The notes beneath the pieces are model-generated. The model ran no database searches, had not been told where the DNA came from, and saw nothing but the letters and a program-made list of their open reading frames with translations. This document shows, piece after piece, positions 1 to 6,838 of a stretch of DNA of 6,838 bases (positions within the stretch are counted from its first letter, which is position 1; the number at the start of each line of letters is the position of its first letter). This DNA is from a virus. Its lineage: Duplodnaviria > Heunggongvirae > Uroviricota > Caudoviricetes. The translations under genes were made by a program, and so were the position numbers. The DNA lies in IMG/VR virus record IMGVR_UViG_2778261105_000002, positions 1 to 6,838 of that record; one strand, written 5' to 3'.

Positions 1-119
1 TTGCAGAAAAAATACCGCTCACCGCCCTGCACCGTCAGGTCGATTTCCCAGAGCACCACCCGCGGTGACTGCTCTGACTTAACCGACTCGTTCAGGCTTT
101 CTTCGTGAATATCCTGCAT
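1..119 (-). CDS. L: Minor tail protein L (lambda gpL-like), N-terminal fragment only; gene continues past the window start
   Basis: Minus-strand translation from ATG at 119..117 gives MQDIHEESLNESVKSEQSPRVVLWEIDLTVQGGERYFFC, closely matching the lambda gpL N-terminus as I remember it (MQDIRQETLNE...VVLWEIDLTEVGGERYFFC). An in-frame ATG at 131..129 (MGGY-MQDI) is an alternative start but follows the terminator U-tract directly with no Shine-Dalgarno. This ORF is below the length cutoff of the supplied track. Confidence 0.8.
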   Translation of the reverse strand, partial: MQDIHEESLNESVKSEQSPRVVLWEIDLTVQGGERYFFC

Positions 120-131
120 ATATCCGCCCAT

Positions 132-155
132 AAAAAAGGGGCGCAGACGCGCCCC
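132..155 (-). terminator. Rho-independent terminator closing the porin cassette
   Basis: On the minus strand: GGGGCGC-GUCU-GCGCCCC (perfect 7-bp all-GC stem at 155..138, 4-nt loop) followed directly by UUUUUU (137..132). On the plus strand the hairpin is preceded, not followed, by the A-run, so it is unidirectional for minus-strand transcripts. Confidence 0.75.
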
Positions 156-158
156 GAA

Positions 159-328
159 CAATAAAAGTCCAATTTAAAATAAAACCAATAAAGGTAATAA
201 CAGAAAGTTAAATCAGCACATGCCAGATGGCAATTGCTGATCGCAGTGACCAATGAAAACTGTGTTTTCATTGATACAGGCCGCCTGTAAGGGCAGACGG
301 CCCGTATTTATTAACTTATCAGCAATAA
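159..328 (-). ncRNA. Structured 3' region of the porin transcript; candidate 3'-UTR-derived small RNA (IpeX-like hypothesis)
   Basis: About 170 nt between the porin stop (331..329) and the terminator carry three consecutive hairpins: a 9-bp inverted repeat ACTTATCAG/CTGATAAGT (314..322 / 335..343) with the stop codon in its loop; a 9-bp stem at 279..302 with a 6-nt loop (one C/A mismatch on plus, a G-U wobble in minus-strand RNA); and a perfect 10-bp inverted repeat CAATGAAAAC-TGT-GTTTTCATTG (251..273). No convincing ORF is present. The sRNA assignment is inference only. Confidence 0.25.
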
Positions 329-1483
329 TCAGAACTGATAAGTCATACCCACAGCAACGATATTATCTGTCGCAACACCGGCTTTCCGGGTAAATTCACT
401 TTCATCAATCAGGTTAATTTTATAATCAACATAGGTGGACATATTCTTGTTAAAGTAATAAGTCGCACCGACATCAATATATTTAACCAGATCCTGATCG
501 CCATGGTTCACACCACCAACCATAACATCCTGTCCGCGGGACTGAAGGTAGGCAAGGGACGGGCGCAGACCAAAATCAAACTGATACTGAACAACGGCTT
601 CGATATTCTGAGCTTTATCCGCAACACCTTGATCACCAAAGGTCGTCATATTCTGGGTTTCAGAATACACTGCTGCCAGATACAGGTTATTGGCATCATA
701 TTTAAGACCAGTTCCCCAGAATTCAGCATGTTTACCTTTTGCCACACTACCTGAGTCAACTGCTTTTTCTCCAACCTTTTTACCTGATGCAGGATCAAGA
801 ACATCTGCAGTACCATTCAACCCCTGAACCTGCTTATCAGTACGATCTGACTTGGTATACGCAGCGACAAAACCAAAACCATCAAACTCATAGCTGGCCG
901 AGAAACCATACCCGTCGCCATTAGCCTTCTGAAGGTCATCACGCTCATTTTTGCCCTGATACTGCGCCGCAAAATTCAGACCATCAACCAGTCCGAAGAA
1001 GTCTGTATTACGGTAAGTCAGGACACCGGAAGTTCGGGCCGTCATAAAGTTATCGGTCTGCGTCCAGCCATCACCACCAAACTCAGGCAGTACGTCAGTA
1101 TATGATCCGACATCGTAAGCAATACCATAGTTACGTCCGTAATCAATGGTACCAACATCTGCAAATCTCAGACCTGCAAATGCCAGACGGGTTTTATTTC
1201 CCGCGGAACCTTCAGATTCCGTTTTATTACCAGAGAACTGGTATTCCCACTGACCAAATCCGGTCAGTTGATCATTAATCTGCGTTTCGCCTTTAAAGCC
1301 GAGACGAGCATAAGTCTGGTCTCCGTCATTACCTTTATCATCCGAGAAGTAATGCAGAGCGGTTGCACGCCCGTAAAGATCCAGTTTATTACCATCTTTA
1401 TTATAAACTTCTGCTGCCTGCGCCCCCGCAGCAAACATCACTGCCACTGCTACAGCAGAAAGTGCCACTGTCATTTTTTTCAT
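329..1483 (-). CDS. General bacterial porin, OmpC/OmpF/PhoE family (16-strand outer membrane porin), complete, 384 aa
   Basis: Full ORF with a Shine-Dalgarno AAGGA 7 nt upstream of ATG (1483..1481). Signal peptide [23 protein letters not shown] with an AQA|AEV cleavage site. Mature N-terminus [16 protein letters not shown]3 constriction motif PEFGG, conserved blocks [79 protein letters not shown], and a C-terminal aromatic ...GMTYQF, all characteristic of enterobacterial general porins. Confidence 0.95.
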
Positions 1484-1681
1484 GATTTAATCCTTATTTA
1501 AACTGAACTATTCATGCATTCAGATGTCATGAACAAAAATTAAAATATTTTAATACAAATTCTTAGTTCAATTTATATTATGTAACAAAATGTAAATGCA
1601 AGATCGATTTCGCACTTTCTGACAAGACAGATTAAAAATAATTAACAACTAAACACTAAAGAATGATTTATAGGATAATTC
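1484..1681 (-). promoter_or_regulatory. AT-rich upstream and 5'-UTR region of the porin gene (own promoter likely)
   Basis: A 198-bp AT-rich spacer starts immediately after the M stop codon (1684..1682). A sigma70-like candidate on the minus strand is TTGCAT - 17 nt - ATATAA (approx 1602..1574), but its spacer overlaps the OmpR-like box, so the exact promoter is unresolved. A perfect 14-bp palindrome TTAAAATATTTTAA lies at 1540..1553. Confidence 0.5.
1577..1596 (-). promoter_or_regulatory. OmpR-box-like motif
   Basis: Minus-strand TTTACATTTTGTTACATAAT, with direct half-sites TTTACA and GTTACA 10 bp apart. It closely resembles the E. coli OmpR sites as I recall them (ompC C1 TTTACATTTTGAAACATCTA; ompF F1 TTTACTTTTGGTTACATATT). 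It lies 94-113 nt upstream of the porin ATG. Confidence 0.4.
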
Positions 1682-2023
1682 TCATCTAACTACCTGCTCT
1701 ATCGTGCAACTGAAATCACTGTACCGGGCGTTATCCGTAATACTCCACTCCCGGCACACCACCCTGACCGTCCGGTTATGTTTCGGGGGCTTCCACAAAA
1801 AAGCCCGGTAACCACCATGCCATGACAGAAACGCGGACAGTGCCTCCCGCTCAGCATCCGTTGTCACCCGAAAAACCACCTGAAAGGTCTTCAGTTGCGC
1901 ATTCAGTCCTGCCGGACGACGCTGCTGATAACCGTCGCCAAACTTCACCGTCATCACCGACGGTTTCTCCGTCACCTGCATCCCTTCCCGGGGACACCAG
2001 TGAAGAGTCTTAATCTCATCCAC
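1682..2023 (-). CDS. M: Minor tail protein M (lambda gpM-like), 113 aa, GTG start
   Basis: Translation ...IKTLHWCPREGMQVTEKPSVMTVKFGDGYQQRRPAGLNAQLKTFQV...CTIEQVVR aligns along its whole length with lambda gpM as I remember it (MKTFRWKVKPGMDVASVPSVRKVRFGDGYSQRAPAGLNANLKTY...FEQVVN). The start is GTG at 2023..2021 with GGAGGA 7 nt upstream, overlapping the H stop codon. Confidence 0.9.
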   Translation of the reverse strand: MDEIKTLHWCPREGMQVTEKPSVMTVKFGDGYQQRRPAGLNAQLKTFQVVFRVTTDAEREALSAFLSWHGGYRAFLWKPPKHNRTVRVVCREWSITDNARYSDFSCTIEQVVR

Positions 2024-5000
2024 TCAGCATTCCTCCGTCACGACGCATGGATAACATCACCGCCTGTACCCGCTGGTCAATCAGTTGCACAAGGGTGCCC
2101 GCCGCTTCCGGCCCTATCTGCCCGTTAGCGCCGTCATTCTGAATGGCGATGTGGTACACCGGGGAATACACCAGACCCGCACTGCCGTTCATACTGCCCA
2201 CCGCACGCACGCCGAGTGAACCATCCGCTGCCCGGGTCAGGGGCATGATGGCTTCAGGTCCGGCCTCCCCCATCAGCCCTGCCCCTTTTGCAAAGGCAAA
2301 GTACGTGGGCGTGTCCACAATACTGTTACTGTATGCACTCAGGTTTGCCGAGGTATAAACGCCGCCTTTTGCATTTGCCACCGCGCCACCCAGCCAGTTG
2401 CCTATACTGCCGAAAAATCCTCCTGCACCGGACATACTGTTTGCCGCCATCTTAATGCCGTTGACAATGGCCGCATTCATAAGAACTTTTGATATTTCCT
2501 GCAGGATTGATGCAGCCCAGCTGCGCCATTCCACTTTATTTCCGTTCAGCATCTCCGTGATGTTATTCACCATCCCTGAGATACCGTCTGTCGCAAGCTG
2601 TGCTGCCTGTGAAGCGTAATCTGATGCGCTGTCCACCCAGTTACTTAGCCCTTCCTGCAGCCCTTTCTGCCAGTCAGCACGCTGCGCATCCGATTCGGCA
2701 TAAAAAGCCTCCTGGTCTTTAAGGCGTTCACTCAGATACTGCGCATTCTGCGCCAGCGCCTGTCTGTAAAAATCCTCACTGATATCCCCTGTCTGATACT
2801 GAGACTGCAGGTCCGCATCCTTCTGGCGGTAGCCGTCACGAATCTGCTGCAGCTCCCGCATCCGTTCACGGACCCGCTCACCCTGCCCGTACCCCAGCAG
2901 CTCAGCGTCATTTGATGCCCTTGCGTCTGCATTATCATTTTTCAGGGTCTCCTCCCGGGCCCGTAACTGCTCCCGGATTTTCTTCTGGTCAATCAGGGCA
3001 GCATTGCGCAGCAGCTCCTGCTTCTGTATCTCCGTCAGGGTTTTCAGCTCGCCCTGCGAGGTCTGGTATTTCAGTTTTGCCAGTTCTGTATTCTTCCCGG
3101 CCAGTGCCAGTTGTTCCTTCTGCTGCTTCAGCAGACGGGAAAAACTGTCTTCCGCTTTTTCCGCCCCTGATTTTCCGGCCCGGGATTTGGGTTTATTCGC
3201 CTCATTATTGCGCCAGGCTTCCATCGAATTACGGATGTAACGCTGCCTCGCCTCCTGATACGTATCCCCCACCAGACCAAGGTCATCCGCCGCATACCCC
3301 AGCCGGGCACGCTCTTTTTCTTCCCCTTTCAGCCGGGACAGGGCCAGTTGACGCTCTGTGTTATTCAGGGCGCTCTGCTGTTTATCATCCAGAGTGGCCT
3401 GTGGCAGTCGCAGCGGTACACTCGCCAGTCCCTGACGCTGTTGCAGCAGTTCATTACCCAGCCCCAGCAGGCGGTTGAATTCCGTATGCTGACCGTTCAT
3501 GACCAGCAGTGACTGATACGCTTTATTCTGCTCTGCTGCCTGCTGACGAATTAACACAACACGGCGCTCTTCCAGTCCGGCAAGCACATCCTGAATGGAC
3601 TGCGCTTTTTCCTGCATCTGTGCCAGACGGGACTGCTCAACAGCAAACTGCTCTGTTGCCTGAGCAAGCTCTTCCGTTACAGTTTTCACCGATGTCAGAT
3701 GGTTTATCATGAAGCCGTTACCGGTCGTCCAGCCCGGATTAGCCAGCACATACTGATACCCGGCGATTTTTTCCTGCAGGGATTTCACCCGGCTGGCCTG
3801 CTCATCAATCAGCCGGTTCTGCTCTGTCAGCGCCTCCCGTGTTCGCCCTTCATTATCTGAGGCTTCAGGCAGAGACATTGATGGCGTTTTATGCGCGATT
3901 TCATCAATCGTCAGTGCATACTGGCGCGCAGACTCCCTGGCCTGCTCCTGATTCTGGTACAGCGTGTACCATGCGGCAGCTCCCAGCATCACCAGTCCGG
4001 GTACGCCTCCAACCAGTCCCAGCGCACCGCTCATCAGACGTGAGCCCACCGCCGTTGTACTGTTCAGCGCATTCTGGGCGGCGGTTCTGGCAGCAATATT
4101 TCTGTTCAGGCGTTCCTGTGTGACCGCCAGACGGGCCTCTGCCGCAATCTGCATCTCAGTCCCGCGGGCTGCCGCCACAGCCTGCTGAGCCCGGTACACG
4201 GCTGCCCTTGCCCGCGCCGTGGCAATCTGCGTTCCCCTTAACTGGGCCTCAGCCAGTGCCACTTCATTACGTGCAGCGGTCACAAGTCCTGCCGTGGCAG
4301 ACATCGCTCCGGAAGCCAGATTACCAAAGTACCGGGCCACCCCGACAGCAACCAGCACACCCGCAGCTGTTGCCACGGTATCAATATTTCCGGCCACACC
4401 GTTCAGTGCGCCGGAGAGCGTTTTCGTCGCTCCGCTGGCCTCATTCGCGCCGCCCACCCAGGCCATAAAGGCGTTTTCCACCTTCGTGATCCCGTCAGAC
4501 ACCGTTTCCGGCATGGCTGCATATTCATCACGCAATATCCCCAGCTGGCTGATTAACGCGGGAACGACTTTATCCGCCGTCAGTTGACCATCGTCCGCCA
4601 TCGCCTTCAGATCCTTACGGGCCACGCCCATGCCTGCAGCCAGTGCGCGAATGATCCGGTCCCCACTTTCATTGACCGAATTAAATTCCTCGCCGCGCAA
4701 CACCCCCTGTGCCAGCGCCTGGCTGAACTGGGTGATCACCGAACCCGCCTCTGCCGCACTGGCACCGGAAATTTTCAGCCCTGTCGAAATGGCCTCCGTC
4801 ACCTTCAGCACATCATCAGCACTGTAACCATATTCACGCATCGAGGCAGCCGAACGGGCAAACAGGGTCGCATTATCCGAAAATGCGGTGCCTGTCCGCT
4901 GGCTGATGTCCATCAGCACTTTCTGTGATAACGCAAATTCATCCGATGACTGCGACGCCTGTTTCAGACGGGCATTCACGGAGCTCCATTCATCTGCCAG

Positions 5001-5258
5001 CGAAATCAGGTGTCCGGTGGCAAAGGCACCGGCAAACGCACTGGTCATTCCGACAGCCGAAGCGCGGATTTCCGTCAACTGGCTGTTCAGCTCAGCCAGA
5101 GCCCGGCACTGCTCCCTGGCTGCCGCAGCAGCCTGACGTCCGCCATTCTGCAGGGTCCGGTAATATTCACTGCCCATACGGGACGCCCGCTGGATCTCCG
5201 ACTGGAATGACTGTGAATTTGCCGAAATTTTGATAATCAGTTCACGTAACGTCGCCAT
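2016..5258 (-). CDS. H: Tail tape measure protein (lambda gpH family), 1080 aa
   Basis: Very long Ala/Gln/Glu-rich, coiled-coil-like ORF with internal hydrophobic Gly/Ala-rich segments (e.g. TVATAAGVLVAVGVARYFGNLASGAMSATAGLV and GALGLVGGVPGLVMLGAAAWYTLY) and a Gly-rich C-terminal region, sitting between the G/G-T and M genes. Strong SD AGGAGAAAGGTGA directly upstream of ATG at 5258..5256. Confidence 0.95.
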   Translation of the reverse strand: MATLRELIIKISANSQSFQSEIQRASRMGSEYYRTLQNGGRQAAAAAREQCRALAELNSQLTEIRASAVGMTSAFAGAFATGHLISLADEWSSVNARLKQASQSSDEFALSQKVLMDISQRTGTAFSDNATLFARSAASMREYGYSADDVLKVTEAISTGLKISGASAAEAGSVITQFSQALAQGVLRGEEFNSVNESGDRIIRALAAGMGVARKDLKAMADDGQLTADKVVPALISQLGILRDEYAAMPETVSDGITKVENAFMAWVGGANEASGATKTLSGALNGVAGNIDTVATAAGVLVAVGVARYFGNLASGAMSATAGLVTAARNEVALAEAQLRGTQIATARARAAVYRAQQAVAAARGTEMQIAAEARLAVTQERLNRNIAARTAAQNALNSTTAVGSRLMSGALGLVGGVPGLVMLGAAAWYTLYQNQEQARESARQYALTIDEIAHKTPSMSLPEASDNEGRTREALTEQNRLIDEQASRVKSLQEKIAGYQYVLANPGWTTGNGFMINHLTSVKTVTEELAQATEQFAVEQSRLAQMQEKAQSIQDVLAGLEERRVVLIRQQAAEQNKAYQSLLVMNGQHTEFNRLLGLGNELLQQRQGLASVPLRLPQATLDDKQQSALNNTERQLALSRLKGEEKERARLGYAADDLGLVGDTYQEARQRYIRNSMEAWRNNEANKPKSRAGKSGAEKAEDSFSRLLKQQKEQLALAGKNTELAKLKYQTSQGELKTLTEIQKQELLRNAALIDQKKIREQLRAREETLKNDNADARASNDAELLGYGQGERVRERMRELQQIRDGYRQKDADLQSQYQTGDISEDFYRQALAQNAQYLSERLKDQEAFYAESDAQRADWQKGLQEGLSNWVDSASDYASQAAQLATDGISGMVNNITEMLNGNKVEWRSWAASILQEISKVLMNAAIVNGIKMAANSMSGAGGFFGSIGNWLGGAVANAKGGVYTSANLSAYSNSIVDTPTYFAFAKGAGLMGEAGPEAIMPLTRAADGSLGVRAVGSMNGSAGLVYSPVYHIAIQNDGANGQIGPEAAGTLVQLIDQRVQAVMLSMRRDGGMLSG

Positions 5259-5276
5259 TCACCTTTCTCCTGGCGT

Positions 5277-5297
5277 AAAAAAACCGCCTCAGCGGTT
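5277..5297 (-). terminator. Weak terminator-like hairpin plus U-tract between the T stop and the H start
   Basis: Minus-strand RNA AACCGC-UGAG-GCGGUU followed by UUUUU (U-run 5283..5277, the first two Us possibly paired). The stem is short with a 4-bp GC core, so at best a partial terminator or an mRNA structural element. Confidence 0.3.
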
Positions 5298-5305
5298 CTC
5301 ATCAT

Positions 5306-5985
5306 TCATGACTGTGCTGCAAGGCTCAGCGCGTCTTCCAGCGCCGCAAACGGATCCACCTCCGGCTTATCCTCATCCTCGCCCCAGCAGAGCATGGCGT
5401 CCTTCAGTGCAACATTCATCCCCTGTGCCCCGAAAACCGCTTTCACGATCTGTGCATTACGGATATCCCCGCGCTCATCACCCAGCGGGGATATCCTGTC
5501 GAACTCCATCCACATCATCGCCTCGCTCGCACTCAGGCTGTGCCGCAGTTCGGATAAGGTGCGCCCCAGACGGAGCGCAAGTCGCATCAGAAAGCGAATT
5601 TCCGGGCGGGCTACTTTTTTCTGACCGACTCTGCATCAGCGATCAGTTCCAGTGCCTGACGCAGCAAGCGGGCATGTACCGGACCATAGACGGCCAGCAC
5701 CTGCTCACGGTCGTCCGGAGTGAACACCCGTTGCAGATCCGTATCACACAGGACATCGCAGAACAGCGTCACATCCGCTTCCAGGTTACGGCGGGTTTTC
5801 GCCACCACCGACAGAGTATCGTCATCCTCTCCATCACCATTGAGCACGTCCTGCCACAGATACCAGGCCTCTGCCGAAGGCTCCCGCAGCACCACGCTGA
5901 CATTACCCCATTCCGGCACCTTCACCGTTTTATGACGAAACCCTGACAGTCTGGCCAGCGCCAGCGTTTTCAGATCCTTTTTCAT
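5306..5985 (-). CDS. Tail assembly chaperone G-T fusion made by programmed -1 ribosomal frameshift (G frame 5985..5614, then T frame 5614..5306)
   Basis: The G frame ends ...AESVRKK* with codons AGA AAA AAG TAG. The heptamer A_AAA_AAG (5620..5614) is a classic -1 slippery site. After a -1 slip the reading continues GTA GCC CGC CCG GAA... = VARPEIRFLMRLALRLG..., which is exactly the upstream extension and body of the 93-aa ORF 5306..5587. Position between V and H matches the conserved G/G-T arrangement. Confidence 0.75.
5611..5985 (-). CDS. G: Tail assembly chaperone G (lambda gpG-like), about 124 aa
   Basis: ORF directly downstream of V on the same strand. Preferred start is ATG at 5985..5983 (MKKDLKTLALARLSG...) with SD AGGGGA 9 nt upstream. 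The track's longer start at 6033 would overlap the V 3' end by 34 nt and has no SD. Assignment is by position and the frameshift architecture; I could not confirm sequence identity to lambda gpG from memory. Confidence 0.75.
   Translation of the reverse strand: MKKDLKTLALARLSGFRHKTVKVPEWGNVSVVLREPSAEAWYLWQDVLNGDGEDDDTLSVVAKTRRNLEADVTLFCDVLCDTDLQRVFTPDDREQVLAVYGPVHARLLRQALELIADAESVRKK
5614..5620 (-). other. -1 programmed frameshift slippery heptamer A_AAA_AAG
   Basis: Minus-strand AAAAAAG sits immediately before the G stop codon TAG (5613..5611), and the -1 frame is open for 102 further codons. Confidence 0.75.
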
Positions 5986-5999
5986 GATGACCCATCCCC

Positions 6000-6716
6000 T
6001 TATCCGGCGGCTGCGCTCACTGTCACGGTGCATTCAACAGACGTCACACTCTGTGCTTTCTCTGCCGAATCGGTCACCACGCAGGTATATTTCCCCGCAT
6101 CGGCGGACTGCGCACCTGGCTTACTGAAGGTGTCTGTCGTCTGCCCGTCAACCGGCTGACCATCCTTCTTCCAGGCGTATTTATACGGCGGCGTTCCCCC
6201 GTTGGCACTGACTGACATTGTCAGCAGCGCACCGGTATTCACGGTAAGTGTCTTATCCAGATTTTTCACAAACGCCAGCGGTACCACAAAGGACACCGGT
6301 TTGCCTTTCAGACGCAGTGAGAACGTTGCAGCCACCACGCCGTTGGTACCGGATGACCAGGTGTGCTGGCGCACTTCCGCCAGGAATTTAAAGCCCTTAC
6401 CGGACGGAAACAGCACCTTAAACGCATACAACGCGTCATTGTCATAGGCATCACGCAGGGCGTTCTGGGCCTGATTCAGATAAAAATTACCCGACATGGA
6501 AATCTCAGACGACGCCCCCAGACCGTTGATATTCTCCTGCTCTGTGGAGCAGAGCGTGGTCACATCAATATCCTGTTTCTGACCGGCGGTGAACTGGACT
6601 TCCTTGATGGTGCAGTCCAGGCGCAGATATTCCGCCTTATCCATAGTTTCAGCAGTCGCCGGGGCAGATGAAATCATCACCTGCGTCAGCTGTGAGCGTT
6701 CATACAAAGCAGACAT
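6000..6716 (-). CDS. V: Major tail (tube) protein V-like with a C-terminal Ig-like domain, about 238 aa
   Basis: First gene of the V-G-GT-H-M series on this strand. ATG at 6716..6714 (MSALYERSQ...) is preceded by AGGAGG with a 4-nt spacer. The C-terminal ~70 aa (...GGTPPYKYAWKKDGQPVDGQTTDTFSKPGAQSADAGKYTCVVTDSAEKAQSVTSVECTVTVS) looks like an Ig-like fold (W...Y.C pattern), as found on lambda gpV. The track's longer ORF to 6830 would read through the SD and an upstream hairpin. Confidence 0.8.
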   Translation of the reverse strand: MSALYERSQLTQVMISSAPATAETMDKAEYLRLDCTIKEVQFTAGQKQDIDVTTLCSTEQENINGLGASSEISMSGNFYLNQAQNALRDAYDNDALYAFKVLFPSGKGFKFLAEVRQHTWSSGTNGVVAATFSLRLKGKPVSFVVPLAFVKNLDKTLTVNTGALLTMSVSANGGTPPYKYAWKKDGQPVDGQTTDTFSKPGAQSADAGKYTCVVTDSAEKAQSVTSVECTVTVSAAAG

Positions 6717-6732
6717 TCTGCCTCCTGATAAT

Positions 6733-6753
6733 AAAAAACCCGCACGCGGCGGG
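6733..6753 (-). terminator. Terminator-like GC hairpin plus U6 immediately upstream of the V ribosome-binding site
   Basis: Minus-strand RNA CCCGC-CGCGU-GCGGG followed by UUUUUU (6738..6733), then AUUAUC-AGGAGG-CAGA-AUG. The stem is only 5 bp but all GC. Confidence 0.4.
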
Positions 6754-6838
6754 GTATGGGTGTAAGCGTAAACTGACCGCCGTATGTAGCCATCAGACGA
6801 GAATTGGTAACTTAGACGCCCATCTGACACAGACGGAC

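Follow-up and report, generated by a model that had tools for sequence, protein, structure and literature searches.

A porin cassette with an IpeX-type 3′ untranslated region between tail genes M and L of lambdoid prophages in Escherichia coli

General porins encoded by lambdoid phages are known as Lc of phage PA-2 and NmpC of the DLP12 (qsr′) prophage. Their genes lie between Q and the lysis genes and are antisense to late transcription (the order in DLP12 is quuD(+) nmpC(−) essD(+)). Castillo-Keller et al. reportedly defined ipeX in 2006 as the untranslated region (UTR) lying between the stop codon of nmpC or lc and the terminator, and the ipeX-bearing lc transcript is said to lower OmpC. 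In a review of the phages of Shiga toxin-producing E. coli, IpeX is named as a repressor of the host porins OmpC and OmpF (PMC8065619), and it is also listed among the repressors of ompC mRNA (PMC5745476, PMC3333887). Here we describe a porin gene cassette located between the tail genes M and L in a 6,838-nt stretch of viral DNA (IMG/VR record IMGVR_UViG_2778261105_000002, positions 1 to 6,838; the whole of this stretch is referred to as the window). A first-pass annotation of the window, made from its letters alone, had named Lc and NmpC as known phage porins and had placed them between Q and the lysis genes, which is borne out; they are also the closest known relatives. The cassette resembles Lc and NmpC with IpeX in being a phage-borne general porin (67–69% amino acid identity), in having common upstream blocks, a long structured 3′ UTR, and a GGGGCG...CGCCCC terminator, and in its presumed outcome, the replacement of OmpC and OmpF by a phage porin. 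We consider it likely that the cassette is a module of a phage porin and IpeX, which in a lysogen supplies the phage porin and represses OmpC and OmpF through the 3′ UTR, and which is read through in lytic growth.

The boundaries of the insert were determined by comparison with phage BP-4795, in which the stop codon of M and the start codon of L overlap (cTGATGcag). Alignment of both junctions showed that homology to the BP-4795 junction ends at the M stop (1682) and restarts at the L ATG (117–119). The insert therefore occupies positions 120–1681 (1,562 bp), precisely at the M–L junction as claimed in the first-pass annotation. The last residue of M is arginine, and that of the uninterrupted relatives is asparagine. 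The gene order is V, G, T, H, M, porin, and L, with every gene on the minus strand, and the insert consists, in the direction of transcription, of an upstream region (198 nt), the porin gene (1,155 nt), a 3′ region (about 190 nt), and a terminator, four parts in all. The GC content of the cassette is 41.9% overall, 45.3% in the porin coding sequence (38% at third codon positions, GC3), 41.1% in the 3′ region, and only 23.2% in the upstream spacer, which had rightly been described as AT-rich. The tail genes have a GC content of 56.6% (GC3 61–63%), so that the reported contrast holds in direction, but the earlier figure of 60–68% for the tail genes was too high. The annotation had also called the cassette a moron. 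The insertion between adjacent genes, the distinct composition, and the own terminator agree with this term, whereas no sigma-70 consensus was found for the own promoter; a fit to the Juhala/Hendrix definition is supported, with a promoter that we infer. An assembly chimera at the junctions, which would have undermined the claim, is excluded. The same junctions occur in complete genomes and in independent contigs, complete genomes contain an identical 2.1 kb (strains N51 and 2013C-3181, 100%), and 92 genomes span at least 80% of the insert and its flanks. The whole window is a 100% match to a prophage of E. coli N51 (locus L001) inserted at ompW, for which the Prokaryotic Genome Annotation Pipeline (PGAP) gives the same genes and names the porin "ompC".

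The porin gene is complete, and the signal peptide, PEFGG motif, and C-terminal phenylalanine noticed at first reading are all present. The product matches Porin_1 (PF00267) over profile positions 1–337 of 337 (E = 5.9e-144), and its matches in the PDB are OmpC, PhoE, OmpF, and OmpK36 (E 1e-131 to 1e-97). The signal-peptide-like N-terminus (residues 1–23) ends with AQA and is followed by AEVYNK, and the PDB porin chains align from residue 24. The PEFGG sequence, the constriction motif of L3, is located at residues 133–137 (nt 1073–1087), and the protein terminates with ...TYQF. The strand pattern of an AlphaFold2 (AF2) model is compatible with a 16-stranded barrel, the model being of moderate quality (mean predicted local distance difference test score (pLDDT) 65; predicted template modelling score (pTM) 0.58). 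K-12 OmpC is 58% identical in sequence, PA-2 Lc 67.7%, and Salmonella OmpD 66.9%, and no porin with an identity of more than 68% was found in any species-representative genome. In a simple neighbour-joining tree, the M/L porins form a separate clade beside the OmpD/NmpC/Lc group, as its sister and not nested in it. We rejected an assignment as an OmpC orthologue because of the 58% identity and of the location between the tail genes of a prophage rather than at the chromosomal ompC–micF locus. The low identity and the separate clade led us to regard the RefSeq/PGAP label "OmpC" as generic.

The extracellular loop L5 differs between the alleles by insertions and deletions of up to 25 amino acids and by a nonsynonymous divergence (dN) of 0.2–0.33. 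The segment corresponds to the gap between the two aligned blocks of the PDB OmpC structures. In the AF2 model, it is a predicted protruding β-hairpin (pLDDT 65) between the barrel strands 203–213 and 252–262, which are the 9th and 10th; the segment between these two strands is what we take to be L5 in the usual porin numbering. One of the alleles, L104, is a recombinant of two others.

The 3′ region had been described as structured in the first-pass annotation, which missed its kinship with IpeX. The structure is borne out by the minimum free energy of the window 3′ UTR, −84.7 kcal/mol (z = −8.4 relative to shuffles), and by an alignment of ten distinct cassette 3′ UTRs (A2), in which eight pairs are changed on both sides and 99.2% of the cells are paired. 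The covariation score of A2 is 0.243, compared with 0.152 for shuffles (0 of 500 reach 0.243) and 0.05–0.09 with slid partners. Besides the three hairpins (Table 1), the UTR has an unpaired core that is the best-conserved non-coding stretch of the cassette and that includes the seed at 185–209 (AACTTTCTGTTATTACCTTTATTGG). An open reading frame (ORF) of 59 amino acids at 92–271 on the minus strand was rejected as a coding sequence: other alleles have GTG in place of its ATG, the frame is interrupted by a 13-nt indel, and the variation tracks RNA pairing. RNAalifold and single-sequence folding also gave a long-range helix closing the whole 3′ UTR (120–135 with 317–328; A2 columns 5–14/199–208), in which the bases after the porin stop pair with the T-run and with the GGGYGG that precedes the L ATG, with a compensatory change of G-C to A-U at columns 6/207. 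This helix is possible only in read-through (late) transcripts, where it would cover the presumed ribosome-binding site of L.

Alignment of the regions downstream of K-12 nmpC and PA-2 lc with the cassette 3′ UTR revealed the same layout and the same motifs: AACYTTCTGTTAT, TTACC(C)TTTATT, a CCCTCA hairpin loop, and the GGGGCG...CGCCCC terminator. A covariance model (R1) was built from the ten cassette UTRs only and searched over 21 loci. The model matched the segment directly 3′ of 12 of 12 Lc/NmpC-type genes, including K-12 DLP12 nmpC and PA-2 lc, on the correct strand and abutting the stop codon (29–31 bits, E about 1e-6). No match with E <0.05 was obtained in the nine chromosomal porin loci searched. 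The E-values are rough because the calibration was short, and the positional consistency is decisive. On these grounds, the cassette 3′ UTR is a diverged homologue of IpeX. When the window was scanned with Rfam, the cassette gave no match, with neither MicF nor any other family near the porin, and the K-12 ipeX locus gave noise only; these empty scans result from the lack of an IpeX family in Rfam.

The core of the UTR is predicted to be antisense to the ribosome-binding region of ompC and, less strongly, to that of ompF. In RNAduplex calculations with the K-12 leaders, the window core paired with ompC at −35.0 kcal/mol (z −4.4) and the K-12 IpeX core at −26.7 kcal/mol (z −5.3), and 0 of 150 shuffles were as good in both cases. 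With ompF, the cores of the window, IpeX, and the alleles L005 and L003 gave −18.6 to −28.6 kcal/mol (z about −1.9 to −2.3; 2–7 of 150 shuffles as good), and with ompA −15.8 to −22.8 kcal/mol, which is not significant (z +0.3 to −0.9). The ompC leader, which is conserved in 5,364 of 5,426 genomes, reads ATAACAGAGGGTT at −24 to −10. The duplexes predicted for the window consist of AACUUUCUGUUAU with AUAACAGAGGGUU, over the Shine–Dalgarno sequence, and CCUUUAUU with AAUAAAGG (15 bp plus 8 bp), and that for the IpeX core consists of AACCUUCUGUUAUAU with AUAUAACAGAGGGUU (15 bp, including one G-U pair). Among 1,500 real 115-nt segments, the ompC leader ranked 0–6 for the four cores (2nd for the window core), ompF 5–41, and ompA 72–833. 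The ompC leader is thus in the top 0.4% of the real segments for four diverged lineages, but ompA is not. The background included cassette loci, so some of the better-ranking segments must be the antisense strands of the cassettes themselves.

The sequence GAGGGTTAAT occurs twice in the K-12 ompC leader (L009; at about −68 and −14), and TTTATTG occurs twice in the cassette core. Both repeat copies are paired by RNAduplex, suggesting a bipartite interaction or an internal duplication of the UTR relative to IpeX. The window core also has some complementarity to the leader of the cassette itself (1484–1540; −26.3 kcal/mol, z −2.9, 0 of 150), the ribosome-binding region of which, TAAATAAGGA, has one base different from AAATAAAGG of ompC; self-regulation or escape from self-regulation may be involved. 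The core shares CCTTTATTG with MicC and presumably overlaps the segment of the ompC leader that MicC targets. Homology to a MicC-like small RNA (sRNA) was rejected since Rfam gave no MicC match, and we read the resemblance as convergence on the same target site in ompC. It is possible, and we propose it tentatively, that IpeX-type cores pair directly with the Shine–Dalgarno region of host ompC, some alleles preferring ompF, and that phage porin genes would thereby contain a built-in antisense repressor.

The strong intrinsic terminator announced in the first-pass annotation was found by a scan, which predicts its activity. The stem consists of 7 bp, all GC, with a 4-nt loop, is followed by T6, and is invariant in all alleles; the T-run ends 12 nt before the L ATG. 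A terminator within a Q-antiterminated operon is sensible only for stopping transcripts initiated from the cassette in a lysogen, in accordance with the logic of morons. The sequence GGGYGGA between the terminator and L is kept in 10 of 10 distinct 3′ regions and resembles GGTGGTGA at the native 3′ end of M in uninterrupted junctions. Because the translational coupling of M and L is broken by the insert, GGGYGGA is probably the ribosome-binding site of L.

On the other side of the porin gene, the upstream region displays 72–76% identity between deep alleles, as compared with 57–60% at third codon positions. The best promoter candidate, TTGAAC (1566–1571) N18 TATTTT (1542–1547), agrees with the consensus at only 8 of 12 positions, as would be compatible with a promoter that depends on an activator. 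A candidate OmpR-type box, TTGCATTTACATTTTGTTACATAAT, contains TTGCATTTACATTTTG (16 nt, 1586–1601), which is identical to the start of the C1 region upstream of K-12 ompC; we take this segment of K-12 to be the OmpR C1 site. The cassette alleles, lc, nmpC, and K-12 ompC all have the sequence TTACATYTTG without variation. We infer from these features that the cassette carries its own promoter.

In the mechanism that we propose, the porin gene of a lysogen would be transcribed from its own promoter, which is probably activator-dependent and perhaps of the OmpR type, and the transcript would end at the terminator, so that the tail genes L to J would remain silent. The 3′ UTR, within the mRNA or as a processed fragment, would pair with the ompC and ompF leaders and lower their translation. 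The main porins, which are common receptors of phages and colicins, would be replaced by the phage porin with its allele-variable exposed loop; receptors would be removed and permeability kept. The prophage probably swaps the main surface channels of the cell for its own porin in this manner. In lytic growth, the Q-modified polymerase would pass the terminator, L would be translated from the conserved purine-rich site that replaces the M/L coupling, and the porin and the UTR RNA would also be made late. The role in lysogenic conversion or superinfection exclusion suggested at first reading is strengthened by the IpeX-type 3′ UTR and its complementarity to the ompC and ompF leaders. The long-tailed lambdoid phage phi330 of enterohaemorrhagic E. 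coli uses OmpC as its receptor (PMC12502783), which fits a role in self-exclusion.

Several points weigh against this interpretation. In the deep alleles L003 and L005, the seed is altered and the complementarity to ompC is weaker relative to shuffles (z −1.7 to −2.0), the A/U-rich duplexes have a high shuffle background (on average −12 to −20 kcal/mol), the signal for ompF is modest (z about −2 to −3.7), and the AF2 model of the porin is of moderate quality. The 2006 study of IpeX reportedly found complementarity between ipeX and the ompC leader to be absent and the effect on ompC to be independent of Hfq, in conflict with a simple antisense model. A simple promoter scan found no consensus sigma-70 promoter on the porin strand, and expression only by late read-through is possible in principle. 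NmpC was first seen in ompR-type mutants, and the OmpR-like box may not mean control by OmpR. Finally, the best matches of the C-terminus of the prophage J protein are only uncharacterised J proteins of Shiga toxin (Stx) phages (90%). The receptor-binding domains of lambda, 434, and phi330 share only 35–40% identity (PMC12502783), so that the sequence cannot decide the receptor, and we dropped the attempt to deduce it from the J C-terminus.

The absence of a sigma-70 consensus on the porin strand also agrees with a different explanation, that the porin is a late lytic-phase gene without its own promoter, expressed only as part of the Q-antiterminated operon, which removes or dilutes OmpC so that progeny are not lost on debris, in the same way as T5 Llp acts on FhuA. 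The cassette is in fact co-oriented with the tail genes, whereas nmpC and lc are antisense to late transcription. However, the conserved terminator 12 nt before L would be purposeless in a transcript that is always antiterminated, and the 198 nt upstream of the gene are better conserved than synonymous sites and have blocks in common with the lc, nmpC, and ompC promoters, the TTACATYTTG box among them. Moreover, Lc is made in PA-2 lysogens (Schnaitman 1975, as cited in PMC8065619). We therefore regard an exclusively late gene as unlikely, although a late role and a lysogenic role are not exclusive and can coexist.

Another explanation is that the porin is the sole functional cargo. The hairpins would then have no function in trans and would merely stabilise the mRNA or insulate the cassette from L, and A/U-richness would account for the similarity to the leaders. 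Stable 3′ hairpins often shield mRNAs from exonucleases, and both the shuffle background of A/U-rich duplexes and the variation of the seed between alleles are in line with a function confined to cis. We consider such a function quite unlikely in view of the homology of the UTR to ipeX, for which a trans effect on OmpC/OmpF is reported (PMC8065619, PMC5745476, PMC3333887), and of the unpaired core, which is better conserved than any other non-coding stretch of the cassette and which places the ompC leader, but not ompA, in the top 0.4% in four lineages.

The cassette, over at least 80% of its length, is present in 109 of 5,426 complete E. coli genomes (about 2%). The alleles in these genomes have DNA identities of about 99, 95, 91, 86, and 79%, and some single genomes have two alleles in two prophages. 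All of the seven annotated genome loci inspected display the order M–porin–L, one of them being from a mouse isolate with a classical lambda-type tail module, the M of which is only 48% identical; the same order is found in an assembly labelled Citrobacter farmeri (L252). In 29 IMG/VR loci with 84–100% protein identity, M is upstream and L is downstream in all but one, which is cut at the contig end. A search through M collected 80 IMG/VR contigs, of which 56 have a closed junction (two with degraded L), 23 have the cassette, and one is incomplete; M–L junctions without the insert are thus abundant in relatives. No other type of insert was found at M/L among the 79 informative junctions of this tail type in IMG/VR, two seeming exceptions being degraded L genes next to M. 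A general moron hot-spot at M/L was accordingly rejected for this tail type, only this cassette being there. No deposited phage genome in INPHARED carries the cassette. The location, thought at first reading to be unusual, does differ from the Lc/NmpC site, but the arrangement is neither rare nor unique (109 of 5,426 genomes; 23 of 79 junctions). It has been annotated by machine as "porin OmpC" in about 2% of complete E. coli genomes, which bears on the first-pass condition that a common annotated arrangement would speak against the claim, and no description of a porin between the tail genes M and L was found in the literature searched, mostly outside subscription journals.

The 37 copies examined comprise 21 DNA variants and 11 protein variants, and all 37 are intact without an internal stop. 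The ratio of nonsynonymous to synonymous divergence (dN/dS) is 0.04–0.08 outside L5, and the synonymous divergence (dS) between the deepest alleles is 1.1–1.4. The cassettes are an old allele series under strong purifying selection at a fixed M/L position. A recent capture of a resident chromosomal porin was rejected, the porins of the species-representative genomes being at most 68% identical and the M/L porins forming a separate clade. Passive cargo in the form of such a captured porin decaying in defective prophages, or an assembly artefact, would agree with the RefSeq name OmpC, the decay of some host prophages (L007, L252), and the annotation of one copy as two fragments, but it is highly improbable and we count it as refuted by the 58% identity to K-12 OmpC, the 37 intact copies, the dN/dS of about 0.05 with dS of 1.1–1.4 at one position, and the occurrence of the same junctions in more than 100 complete genomes and 29 viral contigs.

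Some further observations concern the prophages and plasmids that carry related genes. Host prophages with an intact porin show signs of decay: M is frameshifted in strain 2014C-4587 (L007 7573–7913), and H is fragmented in L252. The copy annotated as two porin fragments is H225 of strain 2015C-3121. Plasmid genes annotated as porin OmpC (H153–H160) are partial matches, covering 12–27% of the cassette with 75–78% identity; such matches were found in 15 places with the window allele and in 99 with the L113 allele, and it seems that plasmids commonly carry porin genes of a related branch. Prophages with diverged alleles have a second insert between L and K (L003 3215–5240; L005 3229–5241), which contains genes for an Arc-family repressor, a ClpP-like protease, YlcI/YnfO, and an Ant/P22AR-type antirepressor, and sodC is located between I and J at L003 1076–1603. 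The cargo at L–K and I–J indicates that several junctions of this tail operon carry cargo.

The coordinates of the features in the window are summarized in Table 1. The start of V according to PGAP is 6716, and the protein has a C-terminal immunoglobulin-like domain (Ig_3, Ig_2, and I-set matches at residues ~187–265 of the long ORF). Gene G ends at its 3′ side (5611–5621, minus) with ...GTC AGA AAA AAG TAG, having the heptamer A AAA AAG just before the stop codon, and its −1 frame is open into T (ATG at 5587), as expected for the programmed G–T frameshift of lambdoid tail chaperones. The lambda-type GGGAAAG is not present in this frameshift region. A weak Rfam match to isrK, an Hfq-binding sRNA, at 5277–5344 on the minus strand (23.7 bits, the gathering score being 50; E = 0.065) covers the 3′ end of T and the T–H spacer, and is probably due to chance. 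In the N51 prophage (L001 3687–13704), the insertion left an OmpW fragment at 3687–3812, a gene for a Hok/Gef toxin lies between J and the tail-fibre gene, and the part past the tail fibres encodes an S6-family serine-protease autotransporter, a YadA-like adhesin, and a DUF4376 protein.

Table 1. Positions of the tail genes and of the cassette elements in the window
Feature	Position	Strand	Basis or remark
Tail gene V	6000–6716/6830	minus	Pfam tail-tube and Ig domains
Tail gene G	5611–5985	minus	Pfam Phage_TAC_1
Tail gene T	5306–5587	minus	Pfam Phage_tail_T
Tail gene H	2016–5258	minus	Pfam, three tape-measure domains
Tail gene M (113 aa)	1682–2023	minus	Pfam Phage_min_tail (E = 3e-33); junction alignment
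AT-rich upstream region, presumed cassette promoter	1484–1681	minus	23% GC; shares blocks with lc/nmpC upstream
Candidate OmpR-type box	1577–1601	minus	likeness to K-12 ompC upstream
Shine–Dalgarno AAGGA of porin gene	1491–1495	minus	7 nt 5′ of ATG, kept in all alleles
Porin gene (384 aa)	329–1483	minus	Pfam Porin_1
Extracellular loop L5, residues 214–251	731–844	minus	long, hypervariable
Whole IpeX-type 3′ UTR, porin stop codon to terminator	120–328	minus	covariance model
Hairpin 1, 14 bp, loop CCCTTA	274–307	minus	three compensatory pairs; 98.6% of cells paired
Hairpin 2, 10 bp	251–273	minus	four pairs changed on both sides; 100% of cells paired
Hairpin 3	211–242	minus	RNAalifold helix, columns 88–94/113–119, one compensatory pair
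A/U-rich core, mostly unpaired	157–214	minus	near-invariant columns in A2
Predicted intrinsic terminator (stem 138–155, T6 132–137)	132–155	minus	terminator scan
GGGCGGA, likely L ribosome-binding site	123–129	minus	3 nt 5′ of L ATG
Tail gene L, 5′ end (start codon 117–119; continues beyond the window)	1–119	minus	translation MQDIHEESLNES = PGAP "phage minor tail protein L" at L001

The cassette differs from the known systems in several respects. In contrast to Lc and NmpC, it is located between M and L in the sense orientation, its porins form a separate clade with a much longer hypervariable L5, its 3′ UTR is ~30 nt longer, and its seed is partly different. It shares with lom and bor of lambda, the classical lambdoid morons, the features of extra DNA between genes that are adjacent in relatives, a distinct composition, an own terminator, and an outer-membrane protein likely to benefit the lysogen. 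Unlike lom and bor, it splits the normally coupled M–L pair and would provide the gene that follows with a substitute ribosome-binding site, besides carrying a presumed regulatory RNA element. The porin is predicted to have the fold of chromosomal OmpC and has its PEFGG motif and C-terminal phenylalanine, as well as the 16-nt identical upstream box, but it is prophage-borne and only 58% and 67% identical to OmpC and OmpD, respectively. The putative antisense element resides in the porin transcript, in contrast to MicC and MicF, which are separate divergent sRNA genes. Llp of T5 and Cor of phi80 and N15, both acting on FhuA, have the same proposed benefit, in that the resident phage removes or masks a receptor on which both it and its competitors depend. 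An existing receptor is blocked by Llp and Cor, both small lipoproteins, whereas the cassette would repress synthesis by RNA and supply a substitute channel; the likeness is one of proposed function only, without a sequence relationship.

The kind of element described here, a phage porin with IpeX, is already known; what is new is the fixed M/L position co-oriented with late transcription and, as the main result, the homology of its 3′ UTR to IpeX. Within the tightly coupled M–L pair of lambdoid tails there is room for one specific insert, which has a terminator and a probable replacement ribosome-binding site. The location, the allele series, and the link to IpeX should be of interest to specialists of phages and of the outer membrane, and the conserved core complementary to the ompC ribosome-binding site makes the mechanism of IpeX directly testable. 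If the proposed pairing is true, a single transcript would supply a new porin and shut off the resident porins, IpeX would have a base-pairing mechanism, and the seeds of the cassette alleles would have been retargeted; with its hypervariable L5 in addition, the M/L cassette would amount to a diversifying "receptor-swap" system present in about 2% of E. coli. Small hydrophilic antibiotics enter the cell mainly through OmpC and OmpF, which are also the receptors of many phages and colicins. In the carriers, many of which are Shiga toxin-producing and in which genome annotation hides the cassette under the label "ompC", these porins may be replaced by a divergent one with a variable loop, and sensitivity to phages and colicins, permeability to antibiotics, and antigenicity could change as a result.

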